Positions 11,921 through 27,190 of a stretch of DNA of 64,000 bases are shown piece after piece. The position numbers and the translations under genes are program-made. Under the pieces are notes generated by a model, which saw nothing but the letters and a program-made list of their open reading frames with translations, was not told the DNA's origin and did not search any database. Numbering within the stretch: the stretch's first letter is position 1; the number at the start of each line of letters is the position of its first letter. The DNA is taken from the NCBI GenBank assembly GCA_964462015.1, contig CAYWXI010000002.1, positions 23,128 to 87,127 of the forward strand, given 5' to 3'. Source of the DNA: an uncultured Bacteroidales bacterium. GTDB lineage: Bacteria > Bacteroidota > Bacteroidia > Bacteroidales > JAEINX01.

Positions 11921-11983
11921 AAAAAAATTTAAATCACAACAACTTAGGCTTTAAATTGTTTATCTTTATAATAAAATCTGATT

Positions 11984-12622
11984 ATGGATATTGTAAAAAT
12001 TATAATTGCAGACGATCATATAATTTTCCGAAAAGGTTTGCGGACAATATTAAATGAAATCAATGACATTAAAGTAGTTGCAGAAGCATCAAATGGTCAC
12101 GAATTATTCGATATTTTAAAAAAACAAGAAGTTGATGTTATTTTAATGGACATTAATATGCCTGTAATGGATGGAGTTGAGGCAACAAAAAAAGTGCTTG
12201 CAAAATTTCCCGATATTAAAATAATTGCATTAACAATGCATGAAGAAATCGGATATTTCAATAAAATGATAGATGCCGGTGCCGATGGATTCCTCTTGAA
12301 AAAAACAACTAAAGATGAACTAGAACGCGCAATTCAAAGGGTGATGGACGATGACACTTACTTTTCTGAAGAATTTATCGGTAATATTAATAAATACACA
12401 AAACAAAAATCAAAAACTAGTGATATTAAATTGTCGGAGAGGGAAATTGAAGTTCTTGAACTTATCTGTAAAGGATATTCAAACACCGAAATCTCAAAAT
12501 TCCTCGGTTTGAGCAGCCGCACAATTGATGGTCATCGTAGCAGGCTTTTTGATAAAACAGGTGCTAAAAATGCCCCGAATCTTGTGATGTTCGCTATTAA
12601 AAATGGTTTGATAGAGACATAG
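11984..12622 (+). CDS. NarL/LuxR-family response regulator
   Basis: IADDH, LMDINMP, LSEREIEVL...HTH. Confidence 0.95.
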   Translation: MDIVKIIIADDHIIFRKGLRTILNEINDIKVVAEASNGHELFDILKKQEVDVILMDINMPVMDGVEATKKVLAKFPDIKIIALTMHEEIGYFNKMIDAGADGFLLKKTTKDELERAIQRVMDDDTYFSEEFIGNINKYTKQKSKTSDIKLSEREIEVLELICKGYSNTEISKFLGLSSRTIDGHRSRLFDKTGAKNAPNLVMFAIKNGLIET

Positions 12623-12784
12623 GAAGTCAGAAGAAAAATGTTCTGATGCAAATTCCAGCTAATAAAATCATAAAAAATCTGCCATAATCTGCATCTGAAA
12701 ATTATAGTCTTTTTCTTCATTTTTTCTGCCAATATCATATTTTTAAGAAATTATTAGCTCTGCTTTTTAATAACATACATCAAA

Positions 12785-13041
12785 ATACGTAAATTCCGTA
12801 TAAATTTCATAGTGGAAAACACCCTATGAAAAAAATATTTTAAAAAAATTAAAAATTTATTCGTATTTATTCTTTATTAAATCTACTGTTAATTAATTAA
12901 CAATAGAAAAAATCTATTTGTTTTTCAGAAAACATAAGGTAAGATTTTCAAAAAACATTTTCCTAATGATCTCTTTTACTGTTCTTAACAAACAATGATT
13001 AGGCGTTTTCACCTAATTTTGTACTTGCGTATTTCACTCTT
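12785..13041. promoter_or_regulatory. Imperfect palindromes upstream of the hydrogenase operon (candidate response-regulator boxes)
   Basis: atacg-N7-cgtat (12785-12801), ttcatag-N11-ctatgaa (12806-12830), attaggcg-tttt-cacctaat (12998-13017). Confidence 0.4.
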
Positions 13042-13062
13042 GTACAGACTTGGTTCTTGAAA

Positions 13063-13089
13063 TAATTTTGCTTGTGAAATAATTAACAA
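13063..13089 (+). promoter_or_regulatory. Bacteroidota -7 promoter element with adjacent Rex-like operator
   Basis: TAATTTTG (13063-13070), then TTGTGAA-ATAA-TTAACAA (13072-13089), one mismatch to the Rex consensus TTGTGAA-N4-TTCACAA. Confidence 0.65.
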
Positions 13090-13095
13090 TAGAAA

Positions 13096-13527
13096 GTGAA
13101 AACAAAAAAAGTAATAATAGTAGATAATAACAATTTCTTCAGAAAAGCATTAGGAGAAATATTATTGAGTATCGGAGGAGTGGAAATAGTTGTTGAAGCT
13201 TCTAACGGAAAAGAATTTCTTGATAATATAAAACTAAAGCCTGCCGATATTACTTTTATTAATATCAAATTACCACATATTGATGGTGTTGAAGCTACAA
13301 AAATTGCCCATCGAACTCATCCTGAAATGACTATTATTGGTTTTTCATCACTTGAAAATCAAAGATATGTCAGTCAGATGTTAGCTGCAGGCGCAAAAGG
13401 CTATCTATCAAAAAATCGTGATAATTATGATTTATTAAAGTTGATTATTGAAAACCCTGACGAAGGGCCGTTTTTATCAAAAGAAATAGAACAAAACATG
13501 AATCAAATTAATTTTCAAGTGATTTGA
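13096..13527 (+). CDS. Stand-alone NarL-type pseudo-receiver (phospho-Asp replaced by Asn)
   Basis: IVDNN; FINIKLP aligns to LMDINMP of 11984-12622; no output domain; GTG start. Confidence 0.85.
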   Translation: MKTKKVIIVDNNNFFRKALGEILLSIGGVEIVVEASNGKEFLDNIKLKPADITFINIKLPHIDGVEATKIAHRTHPEMTIIGFSSLENQRYVSQMLAAGAKGYLSKNRDNYDLLKLIIENPDEGPFLSKEIEQNMNQINFQVI

Positions 13528-13566
13528 TTAAAAAATTATTTATAAACAATCAAAAAAAATAAAGTC

Positions 13567-14067
13567 ATGAAAACAAAAAAAATTTTAATCGTTGACGATG
13601 ACGTAGATGTTATCAATGTTATTCAAACAATTTTAGAACACGAAGGCTACGAAGTTATTGCAGCAAACGACAAAAAAGAAGGCCTCGAAAAAGCAATAGA
13701 ATTGAAGCCTGACCTGGCTATCCTTGATGTTATGATGACAACACATTACGAAGGTTTTGAATTGGCAAAAGAATTAACAAGCAATCCTGCTTTTAATAAA
13801 ATGCCGGTTGTTATGCAAACATCAATCGAAGCCTTAACAACAACCAATCCAAGTGTTCAGGCAATGGCCAGAGAATTCAGGTTAGACCCTAAATACAAAG
13901 AATTACAAGTTATTTTAATCAAAGATGTTACAACCGGAAATGCTGGAATTGATTACTTGTCGGAAGAAGGAAAATCAATATTTATTCATATTGACGGTTT
14001 CTTCAGAAAACCTGTTGATTCAAGCAAGCTTTTACCTGAAATCAAAAGACTTTTAGGCAATAATTAA
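13567..14067 (+). CDS. Single-domain response regulator with internal insertion
   Basis: ILIVDDD, ILDVMM, QTS, FFRKP. Confidence 0.9.
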   Translation: MKTKKILIVDDDVDVINVIQTILEHEGYEVIAANDKKEGLEKAIELKPDLAILDVMMTTHYEGFELAKELTSNPAFNKMPVVMQTSIEALTTTNPSVQAMAREFRLDPKYKELQVILIKDVTTGNAGIDYLSEEGKSIFIHIDGFFRKPVDSSKLLPEIKRLLGNN

Positions 14068-14070
14068 ATT

Positions 14071-14142
14071 GAAACTGGAAATTCGAAATTGGAAATTAGA
14101 ATCGCAATTTAAGAGTAATCAAATTTCCAATTTCTAATTTTT
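14071..14142. repeat. GAAATT(A/G)-heptamer inverted repeat element
   Basis: gaaactg gaaattc gaaattg gaaatta ... aatttcc aatttct aatttt; same family as 20403-20452 and 31102-31160. Confidence 0.8.
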
Positions 14143-14199
14143 TAAAAATACAAGCCAGTTGCTAAAATATAAACACACAAAAAATAATATTGTAATTGA

Positions 14200-14667
14200 A
14201 TGAAAACAAGTTTTGAAGCAATTGTAGAAGAATATCCAAATGCCCAAAATGATAGTTTAATCCCGATTTTGCAAAAAATTCAGGATAATGAAGGGTATAT
14301 TTCAGAAGAATCAGTTGTCAGAGTTGGTGAATATTTAAAAATTCCAACAAGCAAAATTTTTGGTGTTGCTACTTTTTATAATCAGTTCAGGTTTGAACCT
14401 ACCGGAAAATATCATATTCAAGTTTGCAGAGGTACTGCATGCCATGTTTTAGGTTCGGCTACTGTTTTACAAGAATTAGAAAAATACATTAAAATCAAAG
14501 CAGGACAAACTTCAAGAGATGGTTTGTTTAGCATCGAAGTAGTTGCATGTATTGGTGCATGTGGTTTAGCTCCTGTTATTTGCATTAATGGCGAATTTTT
14601 TGCAAAAGTTACCGAAGAATCTATAAAAGAAATTATTGATAATTATAGAAATCAGGAGGAAAAGTAA
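14200..14667 (+). CDS. hydC: Bifurcating [FeFe]-hydrogenase NuoE-like subunit (HydC/HndA)
   Basis: CRGTAC...CIGAC 2Fe-2S motif; VATFYNQF. Confidence 0.9.
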   Translation: MKTSFEAIVEEYPNAQNDSLIPILQKIQDNEGYISEESVVRVGEYLKIPTSKIFGVATFYNQFRFEPTGKYHIQVCRGTACHVLGSATVLQELEKYIKIKAGQTSRDGLFSIEVVACIGACGLAPVICINGEFFAKVTEESIKEIIDNYRNQEEK

Positions 14668-16616
14668 TGAAGAGTCAAATTACAGATAATAAAAGTTTTC
14701 TTATTGATAATATTCTAAATAAGTTTTCAGTGAATACCTACGAAAGCGAAATAGCTGAGAAACTTAATGAGATTAAAAGAGAGAAAAACAATAAAACCAT
14801 AATTTATGTTGGTGCAGGAACTTGCGGCTTAGGTGCCGGAGCGGATAAAACAATTATAGCTGCAAAAAAATATATTGATGATCACAAAATTGACGCTGAT
14901 CTTATTGAGGTTGGATGTATAGGTCTATGTTCTTCCGAACCTTTACTTGATGTAAAAATTTCCGGTAAAAACAGAATATCTTTCGAGCATGTTACAGGTG
15001 ATAAAGTTAACAAAATCCTTGATGATGTTTTTAACGAAACTATTAATAATGATAATGTTTTAGGTCAATTTAAATCAGATTTAACTGAGAAATGGGAGAA
15101 TATTTCTTATCTTGATGATCATCCTTTTTTTGCTCCCCAAACACGTTTGGTTTTAAAAAACTGCGGAATTATTGATCCTGTAAACATCGAAGAATACATT
15201 GCTTATGGTGGATATAAAAGTTTTCTGGCAACTTTGAGCAAATACTCATCATCAGAAGTATGCGATTTAGTTGAAAAAAGCGGATTACGCGGCCGTGGTG
15301 GAGGTGGTTTCCCAACCGGAAGAAAATGGAAATTTGCAATGAGCACACCGGCAGATCAAAAATATTTGATTTGCAATGCTGATGAGGGCGACCCGGGAGC
15401 ATTTATGGACAGAGCCGTTATCGAAGGCGATCCGCATCGTCTGATCGAAGGAATGGCAATCTCAGCCTACGGAATCGGAGCATCAAAAGCTTATGTTTAT
15501 ATCCGTGCCGAATATCCTCTTGCAATAAAACGCTTAAGAGTTGCTTTGGAAGATGCAAAAAAATACGGATTATTAGGTAAAAATATATTCAATACGAATT
15601 TTGATTTTGATATTATTATAAAAATGGGAGCCGGTGCTTTTGTCTGCGGGGAAGAAACAGCTTTGATTCATTCAATTGAAGGTAAACGAGGTATGCCAAG
15701 GCCCAGGCCACCGTTTCCTGCCGTAAACGGATTATTCGGAAAACCAACAATTATTAATAATGTTGAAACTTTATCGAATATTGCGGGCATTTTTGAAAAA
15801 GGCCACGAATGGTTTAGCTCAATTGGAACCGACACAAGCAAGGGTACCAAAGTATTTGCGTTGTCGGGAAAAGTAGCATTGACCGGTTTAGTTGAAATTC
15901 CGATGGGAACAACAATTCGTGATATAGTTTTTAAAATCTCCGGTGGTGTTAAAAATAATAAAAAGTTCAAATCAGTTCAAATCGGAGGGCCATCGGGAGG
16001 TTGTATAACCGATGAAAACCTTGACATACAAATTGATTACGAATCATTGATTAAAGTGGGTGCGATGATGGGTTCAGGTGGGCTTGTTGTTATGGATGAA
16101 GATACATGCATGGTTGATGTTGCAAAATTCTTCATGGATTTCATTCAACGCGAAAGTTGTGGAAAATGTATCCCATGCCGCGAAGGAACAAAACGTATGC
16201 TCGAAATTTTGGAAAGCATAACTCATCGGCCAAATAATGAAAGTAATAACGAAGCACTTGTAAGGTTTAAAGGTATCCTTCAATTAGAAAAACTCGGTAA
16301 AGTTATCAAAGAAACCTCTTTATGTGGTTTAGGCCAAACTGCTCCAAATCCGGTTTTGAGTACGTTGAAATGGTTTCGTGATGAATACGAAGCTCATATT
16401 TTCGAAAGAAAATGCTCGGCAGGAGTTTGTACCGAATTAAGAACTTTTAAAATTGATGTTGATAAATGTACAGGATGTACGGCATGTATGCGAAAATGCC
16501 CAACCGCAGCAATTATTGGTACTAAAAAAGCACCTCATTTTATAGTTGAGGAAAAATGTATCGGTTGTGGTACTTGTGAAGAAATCTGCAAGTTTAATGC
16601 AATATCTGTTGTTTAA
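14667..16616 (+). CDS. hydB: Bifurcating [FeFe]-hydrogenase NuoF-like diaphorase subunit with N-terminal thioredoxin-like Fe-S domain and C-terminal 2x[4Fe-4S]
   Basis: GTCG..CIGLC; GLRGRGGGGFPTG; NADEGDPGAFMDR; CGEETAL; ESCGKCIPCREG; CTGCTACMRKCP / CIGCGTCEEIC. Confidence 0.93.
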   Translation: MKSQITDNKSFLIDNILNKFSVNTYESEIAEKLNEIKREKNNKTIIYVGAGTCGLGAGADKTIIAAKKYIDDHKIDADLIEVGCIGLCSSEPLLDVKISGKNRISFEHVTGDKVNKILDDVFNETINNDNVLGQFKSDLTEKWENISYLDDHPFFAPQTRLVLKNCGIIDPVNIEEYIAYGGYKSFLATLSKYSSSEVCDLVEKSGLRGRGGGGFPTGRKWKFAMSTPADQKYLICNADEGDPGAFMDRAVIEGDPHRLIEGMAISAYGIGASKAYVYIRAEYPLAIKRLRVALEDAKKYGLLGKNIFNTNFDFDIIIKMGAGAFVCGEETALIHSIEGKRGMPRPRPPFPAVNGLFGKPTIINNVETLSNIAGIFEKGHEWFSSIGTDTSKGTKVFALSGKVALTGLVEIPMGTTIRDIVFKISGGVKNNKKFKSVQIGGPSGGCITDENLDIQIDYESLIKVGAMMGSGGLVVMDEDTCMVDVAKFFMDFIQRESCGKCIPCREGTKRMLEILESITHRPNNESNNEALVRFKGILQLEKLGKVIKETSLCGLGQTAPNPVLSTLKWFRDEYEAHIFERKCSAGVCTELRTFKIDVDKCTGCTACMRKCPTAAIIGTKKAPHFIVEEKCIGCGTCEEICKFNAISVV

Positions 16617-16637
16617 CCTTTTATATATTTTAAAAAA

Positions 16638-18362
16638 ATGAGTTTTCAGATAGAAGTAAATAATAAAAATATTGAAGCCAATAAGGGTGAAACCATTTTA
16701 GATGTACTGAACAGGAACGGAATCAAAGTCCCGACTTTATGCCACATGAAAGATTTTTTCCCAACCGGAGCTTGTCGAATGTGTGTTGTTGAAAATCTTG
16801 GGACAGGAAAACTGATTACTGCTTGTTCATATCCTGTCGAAGAGGGAATGATGATAAAAACTCATTCGCCAAAAGTTATCGAATCGAGGAAAACAATTGT
16901 TGAATTACTATTATCGAACCATCCCGACGACTGCCTGTTTTGTGTAAGAAACGGAAATTGCGATCTGCAAAAATTATCGAATGAACATCATATTACCGAA
17001 AGAAGAATTACAGGAGTAAAAAACAATCATAATCTTGATCTTTCAAGCTCAAGCATAGTTCGTGATCCTGCAAAATGTATTTTGTGTGGAAGATGTATTC
17101 AGGTTTGCGAAAAAGTTATGGGTGTTTCTGCAATCGACTTTGTGAACAGGGGAAGCAATTCTTATGTGGGAACGGCTTTTAACAAGGGATTAAACGTTTC
17201 AAGTTGTGTTAATTGCGGGCAATGTATTTTGGTTTGTCCGACGGGAGCATTAACTGAAAAGAATCATTTTCCCGGAATTCAGGATGCTTTACAAAATCCC
17301 GAAAAAACAGTAGTTGTTCAATATGCCCCGGCTATAACAGTTTCCTTAGCCGAGGAGTTTGGTTTCGAAGCGGGAAAAGATATTAATGGTATAATTAATG
17401 CCGCCTTAAGAAAAATTGGTTTCAATAAAGTTTTTGACACCACATTTACTGCAGACCTTACCATTATGGAAGAATCAGCTGAGTTAATCGACAGAATTCA
17501 AAATAATGGTGTTTTACCAATGATAACATCCTGTTGCCCGGGTTGGGTGAAATATGCCGAGGAATTTTCAGAGGATTTCATTCCTAATATTTCTTCCTGC
17601 AAATCACCGCAACAAATGATGGGTGCTGTTATTAAAAGTTATTTTGCCGAAATGCATAATATAAAATCCGAAGATATTTATTCGGTTTCGATAATGCCTT
17701 GTACGGCAAAGAAATTTGAAGCTCAACGAGACGAAATGACCCGTAATGGAATTTCTGATGTTGATGCGGTTTTGACAACTCGCGAATTAGCACAATTCAT
17801 AAGGCTGCATGGAATTGATATTCATAATATCGAACCTGAAATTACCGACTCTCCTCTCGGAGTCAGGAGTTCAGCCGGAAAATTATTCGGTGCAACTGGT
17901 GGTGTAATGGAAGCTGCTATTCGTACGGCTTATTATAAAATTACAGGTAATGAACTTTTGAATTTTAAAATTCCGGAAATAAGGGGTTTGGAAAAAAGAA
18001 AAGAAACAAAACTAAAAATTGGTGATCTTGAAATCGGTATTGCAGTAGTCAACGGATTAGCTAATGCAAAAATCCTGTTAGACGAAATTAAGGCAGGCAG
18101 AAATGATTTACATTTTATTGAAATTATGGCCTGTCCCGGAGGTTGTATCGGTGGCGGTGGCCAACCTATTGAATTTGATGAAAAGAATGTTCTGGCAAGA
18201 ATGAACTCATTATATGATATTGATGATAGGGCTACAATAAAAGTTTCTCACAAAAATCCCGATATTATTGAGTTATATAATGAATTTCTCGTTGAACCTC
18301 TTGGACATAAAAGTCATAAATTGTTACATACAAAATATTGTAAACGAGAAGTTTTGATTTAA
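16638..18362 (+). CDS. hydA: [FeFe]-hydrogenase catalytic subunit (group A3-type architecture)
   Basis: H-cluster motifs TSCCPGW, MPCTAKKFE, EIMACPGGCIGGGGQ; N-terminal 2Fe-2S, His-ligated and 2x[4Fe-4S] modules. Confidence 0.97.
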   Translation: MSFQIEVNNKNIEANKGETILDVLNRNGIKVPTLCHMKDFFPTGACRMCVVENLGTGKLITACSYPVEEGMMIKTHSPKVIESRKTIVELLLSNHPDDCLFCVRNGNCDLQKLSNEHHITERRITGVKNNHNLDLSSSSIVRDPAKCILCGRCIQVCEKVMGVSAIDFVNRGSNSYVGTAFNKGLNVSSCVNCGQCILVCPTGALTEKNHFPGIQDALQNPEKTVVVQYAPAITVSLAEEFGFEAGKDINGIINAALRKIGFNKVFDTTFTADLTIMEESAELIDRIQNNGVLPMITSCCPGWVKYAEEFSEDFIPNISSCKSPQQMMGAVIKSYFAEMHNIKSEDIYSVSIMPCTAKKFEAQRDEMTRNGISDVDAVLTTRELAQFIRLHGIDIHNIEPEITDSPLGVRSSAGKLFGATGGVMEAAIRTAYYKITGNELLNFKIPEIRGLEKRKETKLKIGDLEIGIAVVNGLANAKILLDEIKAGRNDLHFIEIMACPGGCIGGGGQPIEFDEKNVLARMNSLYDIDDRATIKVSHKNPDIIELYNEFLVEPLGHKSHKLLHTKYCKREVLI

Positions 18363-18369
18363 TAAAATT

Positions 18370-18383
18370 TGTAAACGTTTACA
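18370..18383. promoter_or_regulatory. Perfect 14-bp palindrome, LacI-family-like operator
   Basis: TGTAAACGTTTACA between hydA and the sensory kinase. Confidence 0.45.
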
Positions 18384-18423
18384 GAACACTGAAATTAGAA
18401 ATTGGAAAACAGAAACTAGAAAA

Positions 18424-20472
18424 ATGGCAAGGACAAATAGAAATCAGCTTGTTTTTACTGAACCTGACAAATGTCGGGTTTGCTATACTTGTGTGAGAGA
18501 ATGTCCTGTGAAAGCCATTAAAATCATTAACGGTCAGGCTCAGGTAATTAGTGAGCGTTGCATTGGTTGTGGAAATTGTGTTACTGTTTGCAGCCAGGGT
18601 GCAAAGGTTTATTTAGATTCAAAAGCTGAAGTGTTTTCACTTCTTGATTCAGAGGAGAAAGTAATTGCATGTATCGCCCCTAGTTTTCCTGCCGAATTTA
18701 CAGAAATTAATGATCATTCTATTTTGGTTGGAATGTTAAAAAGGCTTGGATTCGATTATGTTGTTGAAGTGTCGTTTGGAGCAGATATTGTTGCAAAAGA
18801 ATATCGAAAAGAGCTGGAAGACGAAAATGCGAAACCTTGTATTTCATCCGACTGTCCGGCGATTGTATCATTTATTGAACATTATCACCCTGATTTAATT
18901 CCTTCTTTATCAAAAATTGCTTCACCGATGGTTGCTATTTCCCGGATAACAAAAAAGAAGTATGGTAATGATGTTAAGATAGTGTTTGTTGGCCCATGCA
19001 TTGCAAAAAAAGCTGAATCAGAAGAAATTGATGAGGTAATAACTTTCAAAGAGCTGAGGGAGATGTTTGTGTTGAGTGGCATTGACTCTGCGAAAGTTAC
19101 ACCTTGTGATTTCGATCCTCCAAAACCGGGAAAAGGAGCAATTTTTCCGGTAAGCAGAGGCATGCTGCAAACAATTAATAAAAGTGATGATATTTGTGAA
19201 GGTAATATTGTTGTTGCCGAAGGCCGAATTAATTTCCGCGATGCCATAAAAGAATTTGAAAATGGCCATATAAAAACTCAAAATCTCGAATTACTTTGTT
19301 GTGAAGGTTGCATTATGGGGCCGGGAATGTCAGTTGGTGGAAAAAGATATTCACGACGCACCAACATAAGTAATTATGTAAGAGAAAAAATCAGGAACCT
19401 TGATCAATCTCAATGGAAAAAGGATGTTGAAGAGTATTCAAAACTTGATATGAGCCGGTCATTTGAGGCTACTGACATACGTTTTAAACTTCCTTTACGC
19501 AAAGAAATTGATAAGGTTCTGGTTTCTATGGGAAAAATTACCCCAAAAGATCATTTGAATTGTGGAGCATGTGGTTATGATACCTGTGAGGAACACGCAA
19601 TTGCAATAGTAGAAGGTTTAGCCGAAAACGAAATGTGCCTGCCTTTTACCATTGAAAAACTTCATAAGTCAAATAATGATCTTAACCTCTCGAACCAAAA
19701 ACTTGCTTCCACCCGACAGGCATTAAAACAAAGCGAAAAGCTTGCCGGTATGGGCCAACTATCTGCCGGAATTGCTCACGAATTAAACAATCCTTTGGGA
19801 GTAATTACCATGTACAGCAATATTCTTATGGAAGAAACAAATGAAGATGATCCCTTAAGGAATGATCTTGAATTGATTGTTGAGCAAACAAACAGATGTA
19901 AAAACATTGTTGGCGGATTATTGAATTTTGCAAGAAAAAACCAGGTTAATTTATCTGAAACCAACATAATTAATTTCACAAAACAAAGTATCAAATCAAT
20001 TATTAAATCCAATTCAGTTAAAGTAATATTCAAATCAAACATTAGTGATCCGATTGCAATGATTGATACCGATCAAATGATGCAGGTTCTGACCAATTTA
20101 GAAAAAAATGCGATTGAAGCCATGCCTGATGGCGGTACTCTCAATATTGAATTAGATGGAAATAAAAACGAAATAGAATTTAAAATAAGTGATAGTGGTG
20201 TTGGTATTTCAAAAGAAAATATGGAGAAAATTTTTACTCCGTTTTTCACAACAAAAGAACTCGGAAAAGGAACAGGTTTAGGCCTTCCGTTAATTTATGG
20301 AATTATAAAAATGCACAAAGGACAAATTTCTGTTACCTCGAATGCAGACCCTAATAATGGCCAAACAGGAACATCTTTTAAAATTGTTATACCAAGAGAG
20401 AAGAAATTAGAAATTCAAGAGCAACCATCCCGAGTGCTCGGGACTAATTTCTTAAAGAAAACAAATAATTAA
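18424..20472 (+). CDS. Sensory (group C-like) [FeFe]-hydrogenase fused to a histidine kinase
   Basis: 2x[4Fe-4S]; variant H-cluster motifs SSDCP, GPCIAKKAE, ELLCCEGCIMGPG; FeS domain LNCGACGYDTC..MCLP; AHELNNPL; PFFTTK..GTGLGL. Confidence 0.9.
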   Translation: MARTNRNQLVFTEPDKCRVCYTCVRECPVKAIKIINGQAQVISERCIGCGNCVTVCSQGAKVYLDSKAEVFSLLDSEEKVIACIAPSFPAEFTEINDHSILVGMLKRLGFDYVVEVSFGADIVAKEYRKELEDENAKPCISSDCPAIVSFIEHYHPDLIPSLSKIASPMVAISRITKKKYGNDVKIVFVGPCIAKKAESEEIDEVITFKELREMFVLSGIDSAKVTPCDFDPPKPGKGAIFPVSRGMLQTINKSDDICEGNIVVAEGRINFRDAIKEFENGHIKTQNLELLCCEGCIMGPGMSVGGKRYSRRTNISNYVREKIRNLDQSQWKKDVEEYSKLDMSRSFEATDIRFKLPLRKEIDKVLVSMGKITPKDHLNCGACGYDTCEEHAIAIVEGLAENEMCLPFTIEKLHKSNNDLNLSNQKLASTRQALKQSEKLAGMGQLSAGIAHELNNPLGVITMYSNILMEETNEDDPLRNDLELIVEQTNRCKNIVGGLLNFARKNQVNLSETNIINFTKQSIKSIIKSNSVKVIFKSNISDPIAMIDTDQMMQVLTNLEKNAIEAMPDGGTLNIELDGNKNEIEFKISDSGVGISKENMEKIFTPFFTTKELGKGTGLGLPLIYGIIKMHKGQISVTSNADPNNGQTGTSFKIVIPREKKLEIQEQPSRVLGTNFLKKTNN

Positions 20473-20480
20473 GTACAAAT

Positions 20481-20885
20481 ATGTTACCAAAACATAAACA
20501 CATGAAAACAATATTAATAATCGACGATGACATTGATTATCTCGAACAAATGAAAATACAATTGACCTCTTTTGGTTTTGAGGCAGTAGTTGCCGAAAGT
20601 CAAAAAGAAGGCGAAGAAACATTAAATAAAATTAAACCTGATCTGGTAATTGTTGACATGATGATGGAAAACCAGGATAGTGGTTTTATTTTTTGTTATA
20701 AAATAAAAAAGAAATTTCCTGAGGTTCCCGTAATAATTGCTTCGGCGGTTACGGCTGAAACCGGGATGATTTTCGGACTGAACTCTGAAGAAGAACGCAA
20801 TTGGATAAAAGCCGACCTGTATCTTGAAAAAGGATTGCGACCTGACCAGCTTCAGCGGGAAATCAATAAATTATTAAAACTGTAA
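20481..20885 (+). CDS. Single-domain response regulator
   Basis: ILIIDDD, IVDMMM, ASA, YLEK; start may be the Met at 20502. Confidence 0.9.
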   Translation: MLPKHKHMKTILIIDDDIDYLEQMKIQLTSFGFEAVVAESQKEGEETLNKIKPDLVIVDMMMENQDSGFIFCYKIKKKFPEVPVIIASAVTAETGMIFGLNSEEERNWIKADLYLEKGLRPDQLQREINKLLKL

Positions 20886-21013
20886 TGCTTATCAAATAAA
20901 CTGATTTTAAAAATGAAAGAAAATCTAAATAAGCTTACAAAGGCATTTAAGAAATTAGTCGGTGGAGACCGGTTAATAAATTGTAAATTTTTTCATAAAT
21001 AGTTTTTTAGTTT

Positions 21014-21094
21014 GCGGGGAAAGGGTTGCTCAAAATGATGATTTTTTTTTGGTTGGTTAATATTTGTTTTTTCACCCTGACCCCGCTTTTTTTT
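21014..21094 (+). terminator. Long-loop hairpin with U-tract (possible intra-operon terminator)
   Basis: gcgggga-aagggt ... accct-ga-ccccgc-tttttttt. Confidence 0.55.
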
Positions 21095-21126
21095 GAATTG
21101 AAATCGAATTTTAAAATATAAATAAA

Positions 21127-22260
21127 ATGGAAAAGTTAAAAGTTTTAGTAGTTGATGATGAGCCGGGAATTCGTTCCGGAATCGAAAGGATATTAAAAAA
21201 TTACACTGTTGGGTATCCATTTATGGACGAAGATTTCCATTTTGATGTTATTGAAGCCGAAACAGGTGAAAAAGCAATTGAAATCATCGACGCCCAACAA
21301 GTCGATATTATTTTACTTGACAACAAATTACCCGGAATTCATGGAATTGAGGTTCTCGAATATATTAATAAAAAACAATACGACGCACAGGTAATGATGA
21401 TCACATCCTATGCTTCGCTCGACCTTGCCGTTAAAGCAACAAATAACGGAGCATACAATTTTGTGCCGAAACCTTTTACTCCACAGGAATTAAAAGCTGC
21501 TTTGGAAAGCATCACAAAGCATCTTTTCCTGAAAAGGATGACAAGAAAAATGAATGAAGAAGGCAAGCAGATCAGATTTCAGTTTTTATCTGTCTTATCG
21601 CACGAACTTAAATCACCTTTAAATGCCATCGAAGGTTATCTGCGCATTATGCACGACAAACAAGTTGGTAACAATATTGATGATTATCAAAAAATGATAG
21701 ATCGGTCGATGGAACGCATTAACGGCATGCGAGGACTTATTATGGACCTCCTCGATCTAACAAAATTAGAACCCGGAAAAAAACGTAATCTTAAAAATAT
21801 CGACATTTCTGAAATTGCCAAAATTAGCGTTAACACTATGGAACCTTTGGCCATTCAAAAAAACGTTAAATTATTTATTGATGTTGACCGGGATATTTAT
21901 TTCCCTGCTGATAGTACGGAAATAGAAATAATTTTTAATAACCTTATTTCGAATGCAGTAAAATACAACAAATACAATGGCGAAGTACATGTAAGTTTGA
22001 AAAATAATAATAATAATTGCATCAAAATAAAGGTTGAAGATACGGGTATTGGAATGTCAGAAGATGAAATTTCCAGGCTATTTCATGAATTTGTAAGAAT
22101 TAAAAATGTTAAAACAAAAAATATTACAGGAAGTGGGCTTGGATTATCAATAGTGAAAAAGCTTGTAGATGTTTATAATGGAAATGTTGAGGTTTCAAGT
22201 GTTCCCGACAAAGGAAGTACGTTTGAAATAGAATTACCTGTACAGAGAATGGGAGACTGA
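21127..22260 (+). CDS. Hybrid receiver-histidine kinase (REC-HisKA-HATPase), cytoplasmic
   Basis: VVDDE, LLDNKLP, PKPF; SHELKSPL; NAVKY, DTGIG, GSGLGL. Confidence 0.93.
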   Translation: MEKLKVLVVDDEPGIRSGIERILKNYTVGYPFMDEDFHFDVIEAETGEKAIEIIDAQQVDIILLDNKLPGIHGIEVLEYINKKQYDAQVMMITSYASLDLAVKATNNGAYNFVPKPFTPQELKAALESITKHLFLKRMTRKMNEEGKQIRFQFLSVLSHELKSPLNAIEGYLRIMHDKQVGNNIDDYQKMIDRSMERINGMRGLIMDLLDLTKLEPGKKRNLKNIDISEIAKISVNTMEPLAIQKNVKLFIDVDRDIYFPADSTEIEIIFNNLISNAVKYNKYNGEVHVSLKNNNNNCIKIKVEDTGIGMSEDEISRLFHEFVRIKNVKTKNITGSGLGLSIVKKLVDVYNGNVEVSSVPDKGSTFEIELPVQRMGD

Positions 22261-22304
22261 AGGGCTGAGAAAATGAGATATTCAAGCATTAAAACATAAA
22301 AAAA

Positions 22305-23732
22305 ATGAAATTTAAACCGGAAAAATATTCAATCGGGGATGAGTCAATGAAAACTTATATTGATTCCGGTGAAATCTGGGATTATATCAATAATGCCGTT
22401 CCGACAAAAGAAAGTGTTAAAAAGATCATTGAAAAATCATTAAACAAAAACCGACTGAATCTTCAGGAAGTTGCAACACTGGTAAATACAACCGATCCTG
22501 AACTTGTCGAGGAGATAAAAGCCGGAGCAAAAAAACTTAAAGAAAATGTTTATGGCAACCGTATAGTTTTATTCGCACCTTTATATGTTGGTAATTTATG
22601 CTTGAATGATTGTAAATATTGCGGGTTTAAGTCATCGAACAAAAATGCTGTCCGCAAAACCTTAAGCAAAAATGAATTAATTGAAAATGTTAAAGCTCTC
22701 GAAGAACACGGACAAAAAAGGCTGATCCTGGTTTATGGCGAGCATAAAAAATATTCTCCTGAGTACATTGCCGAAACTGTTCGTACGGTTTATGATGTAA
22801 AAACAGGAAATGGCGAAATTCGCAGAATCAATATAAATGCCGCCCCTCTCGACATCGAAGGTTATAAAATTGTTAAAGAGGCCGGAATTGGAACATACCA
22901 GGTTTTTCAGGAAACCTATCATCCCGAGGCATATAAAATTTATCATCAAAAAGGTATCAAAGCTGATTATTCATACCGCCTGACAGCTCTCGACAGGGCA
23001 CAGGAGGCCGGTATTGATGATGTTGGAATAGGAGTTTTGTTTGGATTATATGATTGGAGATTTGAAATTCTTTCACTTGTCCGACATACAAATCATTTGG
23101 AATCTTGCTATAATGTGGGTCCACACACCATTTCTTTCCCCCGTTTACAGGATGCATCCGAATATGATATTGATGAAAAACATAAAGTTTCAGACGAGGA
23201 TTTCACAAAATTAGTTGCCATTCTTCGTCTTGCTGTTCCTTATACGGGTTTAATTTTAACAGCTCGTGAATCGGAAAGTATTCGCAAAGAGGTTTTACAA
23301 TACGGTTGTTCACAAATTGATGCCGGTACCAAACTCGAAATCGGAGCTTATGCCGAAAATCCCGAAATTGATCAAAACCTGAATAAAGAACAATTTTTGA
23401 TCAACGATTCAAGAACTCTAAATGAAATTATCGACGAATTGGTTGATGACGGGTATCTTCCATCGTTTTGCACAGCCTGCTACCGATTGGGAAGAACCGG
23501 TGAACATTTTATGGAATTTTCGGTGCCCGGTTTCATTAAAAGATATTGCACTCCCAACGCAATTCTCACATTATCTGAGTATCTCATTGATTACGCAAAA
23601 CCCGAAACAGCAAACAAAGGCTGGAAAATCATCGATGAGAATATTAATAAAATCGATGACAAGAAAATAAAAACAGAAATTCTGAAAAGAATAGAAATGA
23701 TTAAAATGGGAAAACGTGATTTGTATTTTTAA
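22305..23732 (+). CDS. hydG: H-cluster radical SAM maturase HydG
   Basis: LFAPLY, CLNDCKYC, GPHTISFPR, C-terminal CTACYR...CTPN. Confidence 0.96.
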   Translation: MKFKPEKYSIGDESMKTYIDSGEIWDYINNAVPTKESVKKIIEKSLNKNRLNLQEVATLVNTTDPELVEEIKAGAKKLKENVYGNRIVLFAPLYVGNLCLNDCKYCGFKSSNKNAVRKTLSKNELIENVKALEEHGQKRLILVYGEHKKYSPEYIAETVRTVYDVKTGNGEIRRININAAPLDIEGYKIVKEAGIGTYQVFQETYHPEAYKIYHQKGIKADYSYRLTALDRAQEAGIDDVGIGVLFGLYDWRFEILSLVRHTNHLESCYNVGPHTISFPRLQDASEYDIDEKHKVSDEDFTKLVAILRLAVPYTGLILTARESESIRKEVLQYGCSQIDAGTKLEIGAYAENPEIDQNLNKEQFLINDSRTLNEIIDELVDDGYLPSFCTACYRLGRTGEHFMEFSVPGFIKRYCTPNAILTLSEYLIDYAKPETANKGWKIIDENINKIDDKKIKTEILKRIEMIKMGKRDLYF

Positions 23733-23780
23733 TTAATAATTAAGATGTTGCCATGTGATATGGTAGTTTTGTTTGTCAAT

Positions 23781-23823
23781 AAAAGCCATTCGGAATCGGA
23801 ATATGATTTCCGGTGGCTTTTTT
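23781..23823 (+). terminator. Intrinsic terminator after hydG
   Basis: aaaagcca...tggctttttt. Confidence 0.65.
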
Positions 23824-23857
23824 AAACTGTTAAACTAATTTACTAAAAAACACTACA

Positions 23858-25069
23858 ATGACTAAAGGAAAAGATTCAAAGCCACATATCGGAATTTTTG
23901 GAAAAAGAAACAGCGGGAAAAGTTCTTTCATAAATACAATAGTAGGACAGGATGTTGCAATTGTTTCCGAAAATGCAGGTACAACAACCGATCCGGTTAA
24001 AAAATCATTGGAAATTTTCGGTATTGGCCCGGTAATTATCATCGACACAGCAGGAATTGATGATGATGGCAAACTTGGAAAAATGCGTGTTGACAAAAGT
24101 CTGGAAGTTATAAAAACCGTTGATTGTGCTATTCTTATGATCACAACTAATTCATTCGATGTTTATGAAATCGGTTTGATCAAAAAATTCAATGATCTTG
24201 ATATTCCTTTTACAATAATTCACAACAAGGCCGATATTGAAAAAATCTCAAAAAATACCATAGAAAAAATTGGAAGCCACACCAATGCTCCCATTATTGA
24301 TTTTAGTGTAAAACATCCCGAAAATACCGATGAAATTGTAAATCAATTAAAGAACATTATTCCTGAAACTGCCTATAAATCTATTTCACTTCTCGGCGAT
24401 TTGCTTTCAAAAGATGATATCGTGCTTTTAATCACTCCTATCGATTCTGAAGCTCCGGAAGGAAGAATGATATTGCCGCAAGTTATGGCAATCAGAGATA
24501 TTCTTGATAACGACTGCGTTGCTATTGTTGTGAAAGAAACCGAAGTAAAACATTTTCTCGAGAAAACAAAGATAGTTCCAAAATTAGCTATTACCGACAG
24601 CCAGGCATTTGAGCTTGTAAAAGAACTGATTCCCGAAAATATTCCTTTAACAAGTTTCAGTATTGTATTTGCAAGAATGAAAGGGGATTTTGAGGAATAT
24701 ATTAAAGGTACCAAAACTATTCCTGATTTAAATAAGGGTGACAGGATTCTAATTCTTGAATCATGTTCACATAGGATTAGTTGTGATGATATTGGTAGAT
24801 ATAAAATCCCAAAATGGTTGATGGAATACACAGGTAAATCATTTGAATTTGATGTTGTTGCCGGTTTAGATAAACTCGATCGCAATATTAATGATTATGC
24901 ATTGCTTATTCAATGTGGCGGCTGTGTTGTTACCCGCAAACAACTTCACAACAGATTGAAACCTGCAATTGATGCAGGAATCCCGGTTTCAAACTACGGA
25001 ATGACAATTGCCTATATGAATGGGATTTTTGATCGCGCAATAATGCCTTTTAAAAAGAAAAACAAATGA
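23858..25069 (+). CDS. hydF: H-cluster maturation GTPase HydF
   Basis: GKRNSGKSS, GTTTDPV, DTAG, NKAD, ESCSH...QCGGC, NYG. Confidence 0.96.
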   Translation: MTKGKDSKPHIGIFGKRNSGKSSFINTIVGQDVAIVSENAGTTTDPVKKSLEIFGIGPVIIIDTAGIDDDGKLGKMRVDKSLEVIKTVDCAILMITTNSFDVYEIGLIKKFNDLDIPFTIIHNKADIEKISKNTIEKIGSHTNAPIIDFSVKHPENTDEIVNQLKNIIPETAYKSISLLGDLLSKDDIVLLITPIDSEAPEGRMILPQVMAIRDILDNDCVAIVVKETEVKHFLEKTKIVPKLAITDSQAFELVKELIPENIPLTSFSIVFARMKGDFEEYIKGTKTIPDLNKGDRILILESCSHRISCDDIGRYKIPKWLMEYTGKSFEFDVVAGLDKLDRNINDYALLIQCGGCVVTRKQLHNRLKPAIDAGIPVSNYGMTIAYMNGIFDRAIMPFKKKNK

Positions 25070-26154
25070 AAACACCTTTCCATAAAATATTATCTAATAA
25101 AAGACTAAATAAAGAGAATATTGTTAAACTTTTATCAGCAACTGATTCGATTGAAAGAGAAAACATCAGGCAAAAAGCTTACTCAATCAAACGCAAACAT
25201 CTTTCCAAAACGGTTTATTTAAGGGGATTAATTGAATACTCAAATATATGCTCACGCAATTGTTTATATTGTGGTGTCAGGGCCGGAAATATTGATATAA
25301 ATCGTTATCAATTGCCTGATAAGGAAGTTTTAGAAGCAGTTGATTATGCATGGAAAAACAAGTTTGCTTCAATAGTTATTCAATCCGGCGAACGTAACGA
25401 CAAGGAATTTATAGCCAAGATCGACAATCTTTTAAAAAAAATAAAACAAAACACAAACAACGAAATCGGGATAACATTATCATGTGGCGAGCAAAGTGAA
25501 GAGACTTACCGAAGATGGTTTGAAAGCGGTGCACATCGTTATTTATTAAGAATTGAAACTACGAATGAAGTTTTATTCAATAAAATTCATCCTGTTAATA
25601 CTGAAATAAATTTTTCAAAACGATTGAAATCACTTGAATTAATAAGGAAAAGCGGTTACCAAACCGGAACAGGAGTTATGATAGGACTGCCTTTTCAAAC
25701 AATTGATGACCTTGCCGAAGATTTGATGTTTTTTAAAAGCTTTGATATTGATATGGTTGGAATGGGGCCATATATCGAATGTGATAATACTCCCCTAAGC
25801 ATTTATAATAATCTTCTGCAACCTCTGAATGAAAGGTTTGAATTGAGTTTGCTAATGATTTCCGTATTAAGAATTTTGATGAAAGATATTAATATTGCCT
25901 CGTCAACCGCATTACAGGCCATTCATCCGATGGGCCGCGAAAAGGGATTACTTGCAGGTGCAAATATCATTATGCCAAACGTTACTCCCCTTAAATATCG
26001 GGCTGATTATCTCTTATATAAGGATAAACCCGGCATAAGCGAAAAATGCGATTCGGTTAAAAGCAGGCTCGAAAACAACATTAAATTATTTGACGAAAAC
26101 ATTGCTTACGGCCTTTGGGGGGATTCAAAGCATTTTAGTTGTAAAAAAAAATGA
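25066..26154 (+). CDS. hydE: H-cluster radical SAM maturase HydE
   Basis: LRGLIEYSNICSRNCLYC, RYLLRIET, GMGPY, AGANIIMPN, YLLY. Confidence 0.94.
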   Translation: MKTPFHKILSNKRLNKENIVKLLSATDSIERENIRQKAYSIKRKHLSKTVYLRGLIEYSNICSRNCLYCGVRAGNIDINRYQLPDKEVLEAVDYAWKNKFASIVIQSGERNDKEFIAKIDNLLKKIKQNTNNEIGITLSCGEQSEETYRRWFESGAHRYLLRIETTNEVLFNKIHPVNTEINFSKRLKSLELIRKSGYQTGTGVMIGLPFQTIDDLAEDLMFFKSFDIDMVGMGPYIECDNTPLSIYNNLLQPLNERFELSLLMISVLRILMKDINIASSTALQAIHPMGREKGLLAGANIIMPNVTPLKYRADYLLYKDKPGISEKCDSVKSRLENNIKLFDENIAYGLWGDSKHFSCKKK

Positions 26155-26156
26155 TA

Positions 26157-26220
26157 TGGATTTTAGGGCTTGATTTTGTGTTAGTCAGGCCTGGATTCAA
26201 AGTCAAGCCCTGACTATCCA
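26157..26220. repeat. Inverted repeat between convergent genes (terminator/REP-like)
   Basis: agggcttgattttg (26165-26178) / caaagtcaagccct (26198-26211). Confidence 0.6.
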
Positions 26221-26353
26221 AAAAATATTCAATTAAACTTTGGAATTTTAGCACATGAATATTATTAGGTAGGTTATCAAAGATTATTGTGTTTTTTAAG
26301 AACTCAACTGAGGCTTAAATCCTAATATGCAAGGTCATGTAATTCCTTGTTCC

Positions 26354-27190
26354 TCATTCTTTTGTTGTCCATGTAAAACAGTTTAAAGCACCTCCAAATT
26401 TAACAATATCAGTCATGTCAACCTGAGCAATCCGCCCTTTGTAATCAGGATAATAATTCTCAATCTGTTCAAATGCTTGAATATCTTCATCAATCCCGAA
26501 TTTTGGAAGCATAATTAAATCCATTGTTTGAAGGAAATTTATATATGCCCAATTCCTTTTATCTCTCTTTTTTACCTTGAAATCAATGAATTCTGTATTT
26601 AATCCACCAGCTTTCAATCGATAAAGCATTACATTATCAGTTTTATAGTAATGGCTTATCAAAACGGTCTCATTATCAATGAAACGAAGAACCCCATCAG
26701 AATGACTATACTTCTCTTTTTTATACCAAGGAATCAAAATCACCTTATCTACTTGAAAAGTATTCTGAAGTTTTTCAATCAATTTACTTTTGGAATAGGA
26801 AAGTCGGTTTTCTTTGACAATCTTGTCGGTAAGTATTATGCAATCAGACGATTTTACAAAATTACCACCAGCCATAATTAAATCCGATTTCTCGGTAGGT
26901 AGTTTTAAAGAATCACAAACAATGTCAGGATATGTTTTTAAATTACGACAACCTTTCCAATGACCTTGCAAGTAGTCAGGGTCGTACCGATATTCAATAT
27001 ATTTTGTGTCATTGACTTGAATTGGCATGTAATCTCTAACCCGGATATCTTTTGTATCAGGTATCAGTTCGAGTTTTACTCCAAAAGAATCAAAAATTGA
27101 TGTGATTTGGTCATAGGTACTTTTTAACCGATTTTCTGTTGTAATCCGCTTAGAAAAATAGACTGTATTTGTATCAAAATCACTTATCAT
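26354..27190 (-). CDS. Agmatine/peptidylarginine deiminase-like (pentein) protein, divergent
   Basis: RDYMP, GGN, HSDG, YINFL, GGALNC. Confidence 0.85.
   Translation of the reverse strand: MISDFDTNTVYFSKRITTENRLKSTYDQITSIFDSFGVKLELIPDTKDIRVRDYMPIQVNDTKYIEYRYDPDYLQGHWKGCRNLKTYPDIVCDSLKLPTEKSDLIMAGGNFVKSSDCIILTDKIVKENRLSYSKSKLIEKLQNTFQVDKVILIPWYKKEKYSHSDGVLRFIDNETVLISHYYKTDNVMLYRLKAGGLNTEFIDFKVKKRDKRNWAYINFLQTMDLIMLPKFGIDEDIQAFEQIENYYPDYKGRIAQVDMTDIVKFGGALNCFTWTTKE

Follow-up and report, generated by a model that had tools for sequence, protein, structure and literature searches.

We analysed a stretch of 64,000 nucleotides (hereafter the window) from an uncultured Bacteroidales bacterium (GenBank assembly GCA_964462015.1, contig CAYWXI010000002.1, positions 23,128 to 87,127 of the forward strand) and found that one of its genes encodes a hydrogenase-like sensor fused to a histidine kinase, in which an aspartate, Asp143, stands at the position of the proton-transfer cysteine of catalytic [FeFe] hydrogenases (C299 in CpI numbering). 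The aspartate is a trait of its lineage and is fixed in a large clade of Bacteroidota. We think it probable that the protein is a soluble H2 or redox sensor kinase of the group C1 type with a complete sensory [FeFe] module, in which Asp143 would act as a local proton acceptor, and its most likely role is that of an H2 sensor serving the adjacent hydrogenase. A preliminary description of the same DNA had proposed a natural Cys-to-Asp variant; the variant is real and sits in a hydrogenase–kinase fusion that lacks a PAS domain, but it is not singular, since nearly the whole clade, within the catalogued C1 class, carries it.

Domain architecture of the sensor

The domains of the sensor run from an N-terminal ferredoxin-type domain through the H-domain and a C-terminal [4Fe-4S] motif to a HisKA and a HATPase_c domain (Table 1). 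All eight cysteines of the ferredoxin-type domain (Cys17/20/23/27 and Cys46/49/52/56) were at least 99% invariant in the 169 members of the Asp-bearing clade described below. In the HATPase_c domain the residues of the N, G1, F and G2 boxes are kept, and the kinase columns N562, D590, G592, G594, F607 and G618–L621 were invariant in 54 aligned sequences. With these boxes and the H-box histidine the sensor has the features of a HisKA-class kinase and, judged by its residues, the kinase is intact. Pfam searches detected no PAS family in the sensor at E ≤ 0.01, as the preliminary description had held for the region between the FeS domain and HisKA. The small-subunit-like C-terminal family PF02256 was absent from the sensor by Pfam and present in the adjacent catalytic subunit, HydA.

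An AlphaFold2 model of the 682-residue protein was obtained with a mean predicted local distance difference test score (pLDDT) of 88.0 and a predicted template modelling score of 0.67, from an input alignment of 54 sequences. When the model was compared with known structures using Foldseek, residues 1 to about 430 matched [FeFe] hydrogenases, namely 8zqd_A (E 6.7e-22), 8a6t_A and CpI entries including 6glz_A, and the C-terminal part matched the ZraS kinase, 9jfj_A. Among the matches that Foldseek listed, no chain title named a sensory hydrogenase of group C or D.

The last residues of the sensor (662–682, positions 20407–20472) are missing in most homologs, which have about 660 residues, and were modelled with pLDDT < 50. 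A terminator-like hairpin lies at 20428–20443, within this 21-residue tail. The stop codon of the sensor may have shifted downstream in this genome.

Asp143 replaces the proton-transfer cysteine on a sensory-type H-domain

The H-cluster motifs were compared by aligning the sensor to the adjacent HydA. In motif 1, TSCCP of HydA corresponds to SSDCP in the sensor, so that Asp143 replaces the relay cysteine while Cys144 is kept. Motif 2 reads MPCTAKKFE in HydA and GPCIAKKAE in the sensor, with Gly190 in place of the methionine and with Cys192, Lys195 and Glu198 kept. In motif 3 (19291–19311), EIMACPGGC corresponds to ELLCCEGC, where Leu291 replaces the second methionine and Cys293 and Cys296 are kept. 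The alignment thus bears out what had been noted from the letters: the H-cluster cysteines and the motif 2 lysine are present, a GAC codon at 18850 gives SSDCP against TSCCP, and the two methionines have become glycine and leucine. Furthermore, a phmmer comparison with PDB sequences aligned the stretch to CpI with the C299D variant 6GLZ as the top score, placing 'cissdcpa' of the sensor on 'mftsdcpg' of 6GLZ, and on this alignment Asp143 corresponds to the engineered Asp299 of CpI C299D.

The distal pair of H-cluster cysteines in motif 3 is spaced CxxC instead of CxxxC, which brings the two one residue nearer. This one-residue deletion was common to nearly all sampled sensory-type relatives; we found no mention of it in the available parts of the sensory-hydrogenase literature cited here. 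The four H-cluster cysteines, Lys195, Glu198, the Ala-Pro-Ser and Ser-Pro (Ser-Pro168) elements and Phe241 were all at least 99% invariant in the 169 clade members.

An intact group-A relay behind Asp143 was considered and dropped. Residues E126, E130 and S163 of the sensor stand in the alignment where the group A relay has E279, E282 and S319, but these columns vary across the Asp clade (the first is E, K, A or Q, the second is L in most rows and the third is A in most rows), and the region of Arg286 is deleted in the alignment to HydA. As far as the alignment goes, a group-A-type relay is unlikely.

When the 169 Asp sequences were compared with 61 relatives, only three columns switched together with Asp143, namely Ser199, Lys237 and His414. 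Because Asp arose once on the tree, this switch counts as one event only, not as statistical covariation. In the alignment, Lys237 lies four residues ahead of the pocket residue Phe241, which by our own count of CpI numbering is F417. Lys237 is a candidate charge partner for Asp143, whose carboxylate would be buried, and His414 sits within the signalling helix.

The aspartate is fixed in a Bacteroidota clade

A word-indexed search scored 8000 candidate proteins, of which 7626 had E ≤ 0.001. The best 120 of the 7626 homologs had the same architecture (about 660 residues, 64–90% identical), belonged to Bacteroidales or Bacteroidota wherever named, and together with the sensor carried xSDCP in 121 of 121 cases. 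We also scanned species-representative genomes, which yielded 73 loci, and aligned 84 open reading frames of these loci with the sensor and HydA for a maximum-likelihood tree (quick IQ-TREE, with Shimodaira–Hasegawa-like approximate likelihood ratio test (SH-aLRT) support only). The sensor fell inside a Bacteroidota clade of 50 rows (SH-aLRT 95), 49 of which had Asp at the relay position; the remaining one, L065, had Asn. A neighbouring clade of 14 rows, spanning Calditrichota, Hydrogenedentota, Planctomycetota, Spirochaetota, Lentisphaerota and others, had S, T or P there, two Ignavibacteriota rows had A, and 18 further rows, a paralog that makes up a second clade of Bacteroidota, had N, A or T.

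The 169 Asp-bearing sequences had a mean pairwise identity of 62% (minimum 50%), and 88 of 420 columns were at least 99% invariant in them, Asp143 and all cluster ligands included. In the 61 relatives beyond the clade, the same column held a variety of residues (T, P, A, S, N, H and others). For a wider view, 50%-identity representatives were searched exhaustively with HMMER, and the best 150 plus the sensor and HydA gave a sample of 152 rows. The relay position was occupied by A in 47, P in 25, T in 21, S in 20, C in 12, N in 7, H in 5 and D in 3 rows, the last being the sensor itself and two fragments. This spectrum agrees with the HydDB tally for sensory enzymes, in which position 299 is A in about 43%, C in 17%, P in about 10% and S in about 10% (PMC10055695). 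Of 401 genomes sampled evenly across the phylum, 24, counting the sensor's own, had a match at E ≤ 1e-80, and among these only one other was close (59% identity), the remainder being 40–47% identical; the Asp clade is therefore confined to particular lineages. Collectively, these data showed that Asp143 is a property of the lineage and not of one genome. In the literature we found descriptions of engineered Asp variants only and none of a natural one, although supplements such as the logos in Fig. S1 of PMC10055695 may show minor Asp.

The paralog of the second Bacteroidota clade is a hydrogenase-like protein of about 620 residues, encoded on the minus strand upstream of and divergent from hydC in 18 related Bacteroidota loci (L007, L018, L019, L021, L022, L025, L028, L030, L032, L034, L035, L039, L041, L043, L044, L050, L066 and L073). 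It is 31–41% identical to the sensor, its relay position holds Asn, Ala or Thr, and in both copies tested its C-terminal cluster motif is followed by about 210 residues without a Pfam match. H-cluster cysteines are lost in some copies (L018, L028). The paralog is absent from the genome of the window, where receiver genes occupy that place. DNA nearly identical to 16000–22300 occurs in sequencing runs labelled marine or seawater metagenome from several studies; five of these runs may be those from which the genome was assembled, and none of the runs listed was of RNA.

A predicted helix of fixed length leads to the kinase

The preliminary description had suggested that the hydrogenase part is coupled to the kinase by a short coiled coil, and both the model and residue counts supported this. 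Between the H-domain and the kinase the model was all helical (308–324, 328–338, 359–368 and 388–396), and a single modelled helix, residues 406–471, began directly after Cys405 and passed through His452. In the model there is neither room nor a beta sheet for a PAS domain between the cluster motif and the kinase.

We then counted the residues between the last cluster cysteine and the phospho-acceptor histidine in 230 sequences, of which 8 were unmeasurable, 169 belonged to the Asp clade and 53 were other kinase-fused relatives. The Cys405-to-His452 spacing was 47 residues in all 169 Asp-clade proteins. Among the 53 other fused relatives, 42 had spacings that equal 47 or differ from it by a multiple of seven, namely 47 (28 proteins), 40 (7), 54 (4), 33 (2) and 68 (1), while 3 were off-register (38, 48 and 49) and 8 had long spacings of 141–396, presumably owing to inserted domains. 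Spacing in steps of seven is what a stiff coiled-coil connection would show if its register is important.

The sensor belongs to a conserved hydrogenase cassette

The sensor gene starts 61 nt after hydA, in a cluster that also encodes the other subunits of the hydrogenase, the three H-cluster maturases and several receivers (Table 1). HydA and the sensor were the only two H-domain genes in the genome (5.33 Mb, 97 contigs). The order HydC-HydB-HydA-sensor-REC-REC/HK, where REC is a receiver and REC/HK a receiver–histidine kinase hybrid, recurs across phyla, often with HydG, HydF and HydE after it, and was seen in Bacteroidota, Calditrichota, Hydrogenedentota, Planctomycetota, Lentisphaerota, Ignavibacteriota and others. 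Counting only Asp-clade loci with enough flanking sequence, HydA lay at most 400 nt upstream of the sensor in 41 of 45, a small receiver was directly downstream in 44 of 48, and an REC/HK hybrid lay within 1.5 kb downstream in 48 of 48; the four misses for HydA include loci in which it is upstream at a larger gap. The receiver RECb upstream of HydC was also found in the nearest relatives and in one sub-clade.

Table 1. Positions in the window of the sensor, its parts and the genes around it
Feature	Position	Strand	Remarks
Cache-PAS-HisKA_3 sensor kinase and LuxR-type response regulator	9812-12622	+	Directly upstream of the cluster
RECa, stand-alone receiver	13096-13527	+	Upstream of hydC
RECb, stand-alone receiver	13567-14067	+	Upstream of hydC
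HydC, NuoE-like 2Fe-2S subunit	14200-14667	+
HydB, NuoF-like flavoprotein subunit	14667-16616	+
HydA, catalytic [FeFe] hydrogenase	16638-18362	+	TSCCP; NF040763 'NADH-dependent [FeFe] hydrogenase, group A6', 813 bits (cut-off 765)
Hydrogenase-like sensor fused to histidine kinase	18424-20472	+	Single open frame, 682 aa
N-terminal 2x[4Fe-4S] ferredoxin-type domain, residues 11-60	18454-18603	+	Pfam Fer4 families
H-domain Fe_hyd_lg_C, residues 78-300	18655-19323	+	Pfam, E 7e-52
GAC codon of Asp143, position of the proton-transfer Cys	18850-18852	+	C299 in CpI numbering
Ser199 codon, Asp-linked column	19018-19020	+	Fixed in the Asp clade, different in 61 relatives
Lys237 codon, Asp-linked column	19132-19134	+	As for Ser199
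C-terminal [4Fe-4S] motif Cx2Cx4Cx16C, Cys380/383/388/405	19561-19638	+	PF04060 'FeS' at residues 378-407
Signalling helix, Leu406 to the residue preceding phospho-acceptor His452	19639-19776	+	AlphaFold2 model and spacing counts
His414 codon, Asp-linked column	19663-19665	+	As for Ser199
HisKA (DHp), residues 444-506	19753-19941	+	Pfam; H-box HELNNPL at 452
HATPase_c, residues 548-659	20065-20400	+	Pfam; N/G1/F/G2 box residues kept
RECc, stand-alone receiver, 134 aa	20481-20885	+	8 nt past the sensor stop codon
Receiver-histidine kinase hybrid REC-HisKA-HATPase_c, 377 aa	21127-22260	+
HydG, H-cluster maturase	22305-23732	+	TIGR03955, 505 bits against a cut-off of 312
HydF, H-cluster maturation GTPase	23858-25069	+	TIGR03918, 483 bits against a cut-off of 326
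HydE, H-cluster maturase	25066-26154	+	TIGR03956, 314.5 bits against a cut-off of 254.6

The LuxR-type regulator encoded within 9812–12622 is the only DNA-binding regulator near the hydrogenase cluster. Scans of 12500–26600 for sigma-70 promoters and terminators gave nothing above the shuffled expectation. A Rex-box-like palindrome, TTGTGAAATAATTAACAA, was found at 13072–13089, just before the first receiver gene, with 1 mismatch to the Rex consensus, against a chance expectation of 0.07 per window, and two Rex-like genes are present on other contigs of the genome. Such boxes, at ≤1 mismatch, were found upstream of hydC in 4 of 73 related loci and in neither of the two closest relatives, and Rex control of the cluster was set aside on these grounds.

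A proposed signalling route and the points against it

Assignment of the sensor to HydDB group C1 is suggested by the four H-cluster cysteines with Lys195 and by the linkage to a histidine kinase, and indirectly by a Bacteroidales protein that is linked to a histidine kinase, lies beside hnd genes and was classed as C1 (PMC7768429). Group C1 has been proposed to sense H2 via histidine kinases (PMC5037454). We infer the following route. The [2Fe] subcluster would be installed by HydG, HydF and HydE, encoded just downstream, and H2 would be bound and split at the H-cluster of the sensor, with Asp143 accepting a proton from the bridging amine. A redox or conformational change would then pass through the C-terminal cluster domain and along the continuous helix of fixed length to His452 and set the rate of autophosphorylation. 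The phosphoryl group would go to the stand-alone receiver, the receiver–kinase hybrid or both, and the adjacent HydABC system would be tuned by way of an output that does not show in the cassette.

Several points weigh against this proposal. The conserved core of the cassette contains no DNA-binding output, and with the equivalents of E279, E282 and S319 not conserved in the clade, no relay is evident behind Asp143. The sensory role of such hydrogenases has been called putative in reviews (PMC8924675), and for the C1 enzymes sensory function is a prediction. In TamHydS, a group D enzyme, the C-terminal cluster kept its oxidation state with H2, and its authors considered signalling via the redox state of that cluster unlikely (PMC13104023); the signal may accordingly be a conformational change and not a redox change of that cluster. 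Sensory hydrogenases differ greatly from one another at position 299, and Chongdar et al. suggest that it may be irrelevant for HydS function (PMC10055695). Orthologs from other phyla keep the cassette with S, T, P or A, and Asp is thus not needed for basic function. In addition, the M497L variant of CpI failed to integrate the [2Fe] subcluster (PMC10055695), although this objection is offset by TamHydS, which has Leu at that position yet binds the cofactor (PMC8163306).

A bolder form of the proposal holds that the Bacteroidota C1 sensors are a natural Cys-to-Asp hydrogenase, in which Asp143, perhaps paired with Lys237, gives the H-cluster a functional proton acceptor, one that is missing in other sensory hydrogenases, and so allows turnover or at least fast H2 splitting. 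We regard this as rather doubtful. If true, it would predict a shifted pH or potential response and an H2 threshold or kinetics of the kinase that differ from those of the S-, T-, P- or A-bearing orthologs of other phyla.

Alternative explanations

Asp143 might not be a proton relay at all but a structural or electrostatic solution particular to the lineage, which local partners keep in place, with the sensor working like the S, T, P or A orthologs; we judge this unlikely, though well short of implausible. It would explain why the relay position is filled so freely both in the 152-row sample and in the HydDB tally, why orthologs in the same cassette do without Asp, why the residues behind it are not conserved, and why only Ser199, Lys237 and His414 switch with it, the lysine simply neutralising a buried carboxylate. 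It accounts less well for a column that stays as constant as the cluster ligands at a mean pairwise identity of 62%, with Asn in L065 as the single exception on the tree, a stronger constraint than sister clades show at the same column. Moreover, when the relay cysteine was put through saturation mutagenesis, Asp was the very residue that could take its place (PMC3485046).

The proposed route was also weighed against two readings in which free H2 is not the signal. One is that the sensor carries no [2Fe] subcluster and reports, with its Fe-S clusters alone, the redox state of the ferredoxin/NADH pool or of HydABC. Both methionines around the [2Fe] site have given way to other residues (Gly190, Leu291), the spacing of the final pair of ligand cysteines is one residue shorter, the [2Fe] subcluster of CpI M497L was not properly integrated (PMC10055695), and the standard P1–P3 motifs were hardly found in kinase-bearing Hydrogenedentota C1 proteins, for which H2 sensing was left open (PMC11406978). 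However, the four ligand cysteines are invariant, as are Lys195, Glu198, Ser-Pro168 and Phe241, the Gly is also found in TmHydS and the Leu in TamHydS, both of which incorporate [2Fe]-adt, and the shortened spacing is shared by nearly all sampled sensory-type relatives. Maturase genes also lie in the same cluster, although HydA requires them anyway. We consider this reading improbable. It seems to us still more improbable that the sensor is a physical fourth ('BfuT'-like) subunit of HydABC that exchanges electrons with the complex, its kinase reporting the flux of the enzyme and not free H2. The conserved adjacency to hydA, at 61 nt in the window, would suit such a subunit, as would the Hydrogenedentota group C proteins beside A3 enzymes that were named T subunits of BfuABC sub-types (PMC11406978) and the metabolic role raised for C1 in Cloacimonadota (PMC8542988), but some orthologs have no adjacent HydABC (for example L052, L053, L056 and L067), and the solved HydABC complexes matched by Foldseek name no such subunit in their titles.

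Significance

H2 sensing by 'sensory' [FeFe] hydrogenases is a putative role (PMC8924675). TmHydS and TamHydS, the two enzymes studied to date, have no built-in read-out, and a direct kinase fusion supplies one, namely autophosphorylation with and without H2. The class is catalogued as putative, and we found no published description of the Asp clade. The clade amounts to a natural experiment at the relay position: no residue other than the one fixed here is known from mutagenesis to stand in for the relay cysteine, whereas S, T, P or A is found in sister lineages that have the same cassette. The conserved cassette of sensor, REC and REC/HK, with no visible output, would be a signalling circuit for hydrogenase control in anaerobic Bacteroidota.

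The preliminary description had stated that Asp can partly substitute for the cysteine, and in CaHydA it was indeed the only substitution that kept high activity (PMC3485046). The unusual O2 behaviour that it had also suggested found no support, as the half-life of CaHydA C298D under O2 (air) inactivation equals that of the wild type (PMC3485046). The behaviour of interest for this sensor is the effect of the engineered Asp on H2 evolution bias and pH optimum.

Comparison with known systems

The nearest catalogued class is HydDB [FeFe] group C1, 'histidine kinase-linked (putative)' (Sondergaard et al. 2016, PMC5037454), which has been reported in Petrimonas mucosa, where ING2E5A_0849 lies beside hnd genes (PMC7768429), in Hydrogenedentota (PMC11406978) and in Cloacimonadota (PMC8542988). 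Like the sensor described here, C1 proteins combine a sensory-type H-domain with a histidine kinase, beside a multimeric group A hydrogenase in Bacteroidales, and their role is only predicted. In contrast, the Asp and the fixed helix go unmentioned in the available parts of the C1 literature cited, and the best-matching HydDB C1 entry has no HATPase_c, unlike the fused forms (PMC11406978).

Sensory hydrogenases are known to be altered at C299, M353 and M497 (PMC8163306, PMC10055695), as the preliminary description had stated for group C, and the sensor follows this pattern with Asp143, Gly190 and Leu291. It likewise carries the Cx2Cx4Cx16C motif described for groups C and D (PMC8163306), as Cys380-x2-Cys383-x4-Cys388-x16-Cys405, and with SSDCP, Gly, Leu and no PF02256 it does not have the features of group A. 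TmHydS of Thermotoga maritima (group C, M2f; putative sensory) shares with it two N-terminal clusters, the H-domain, the C-terminal motif, Gly in place of Met353, the loss of the relay cysteine and a gene near a HydABC-type enzyme. TmHydS differs in having Ala299, Ser497 and a PAS domain, where the sensor has Asp, Leu, no PAS and a kinase fused via one helix; where M2f group C enzymes have a PAS domain after the C-terminal cluster, the sensor has only the 47 residues from Cys405 to His452, modelled as one helix. TamHydS of Thermoanaerobacter mathranii (group D, M2e) resembles the sensor in the lack of PAS, the C-terminal cluster, Leu at 497 and a kinase-like gene nearby. Group D enzymes have Ser or Thr at 353 (PMC8163306), Ala299 and their own Glu-based proton path, whereas the sensor has Gly190, invariant in the clade, Asp at 299 and a fused kinase.

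The engineered variants CaHydA C298D, CpI C299D (PDB 6GLZ) and CrHydA1 C169D carry the same residue at the same aligned position. Asp was the one substitution that sustained proton transfer in CaHydA, CpI and CrHydA1, and the variants keep 10–58% of H2 evolution activity, with the bias shifted toward H2 evolution and the pH optimum lowered (PMC9563086, PMC3485046). Their scaffold is that of group A, its Glu-Ser-Glu-Arg relay is intact and both methionines are present, whereas in the sensor the Asp stands on a sensory scaffold whose relay is not conserved. Finally, the [NiFe] regulatory hydrogenase with HoxJ (HydDB group 2b) offers a functional likeness, a slow hydrogenase that serves as an H2 sensor and controls a histidine kinase and hydrogenase expression (PMC5037454), but there the metal site and fold are unrelated, the subunits are separate, and HoxJ has a PAS-like part.

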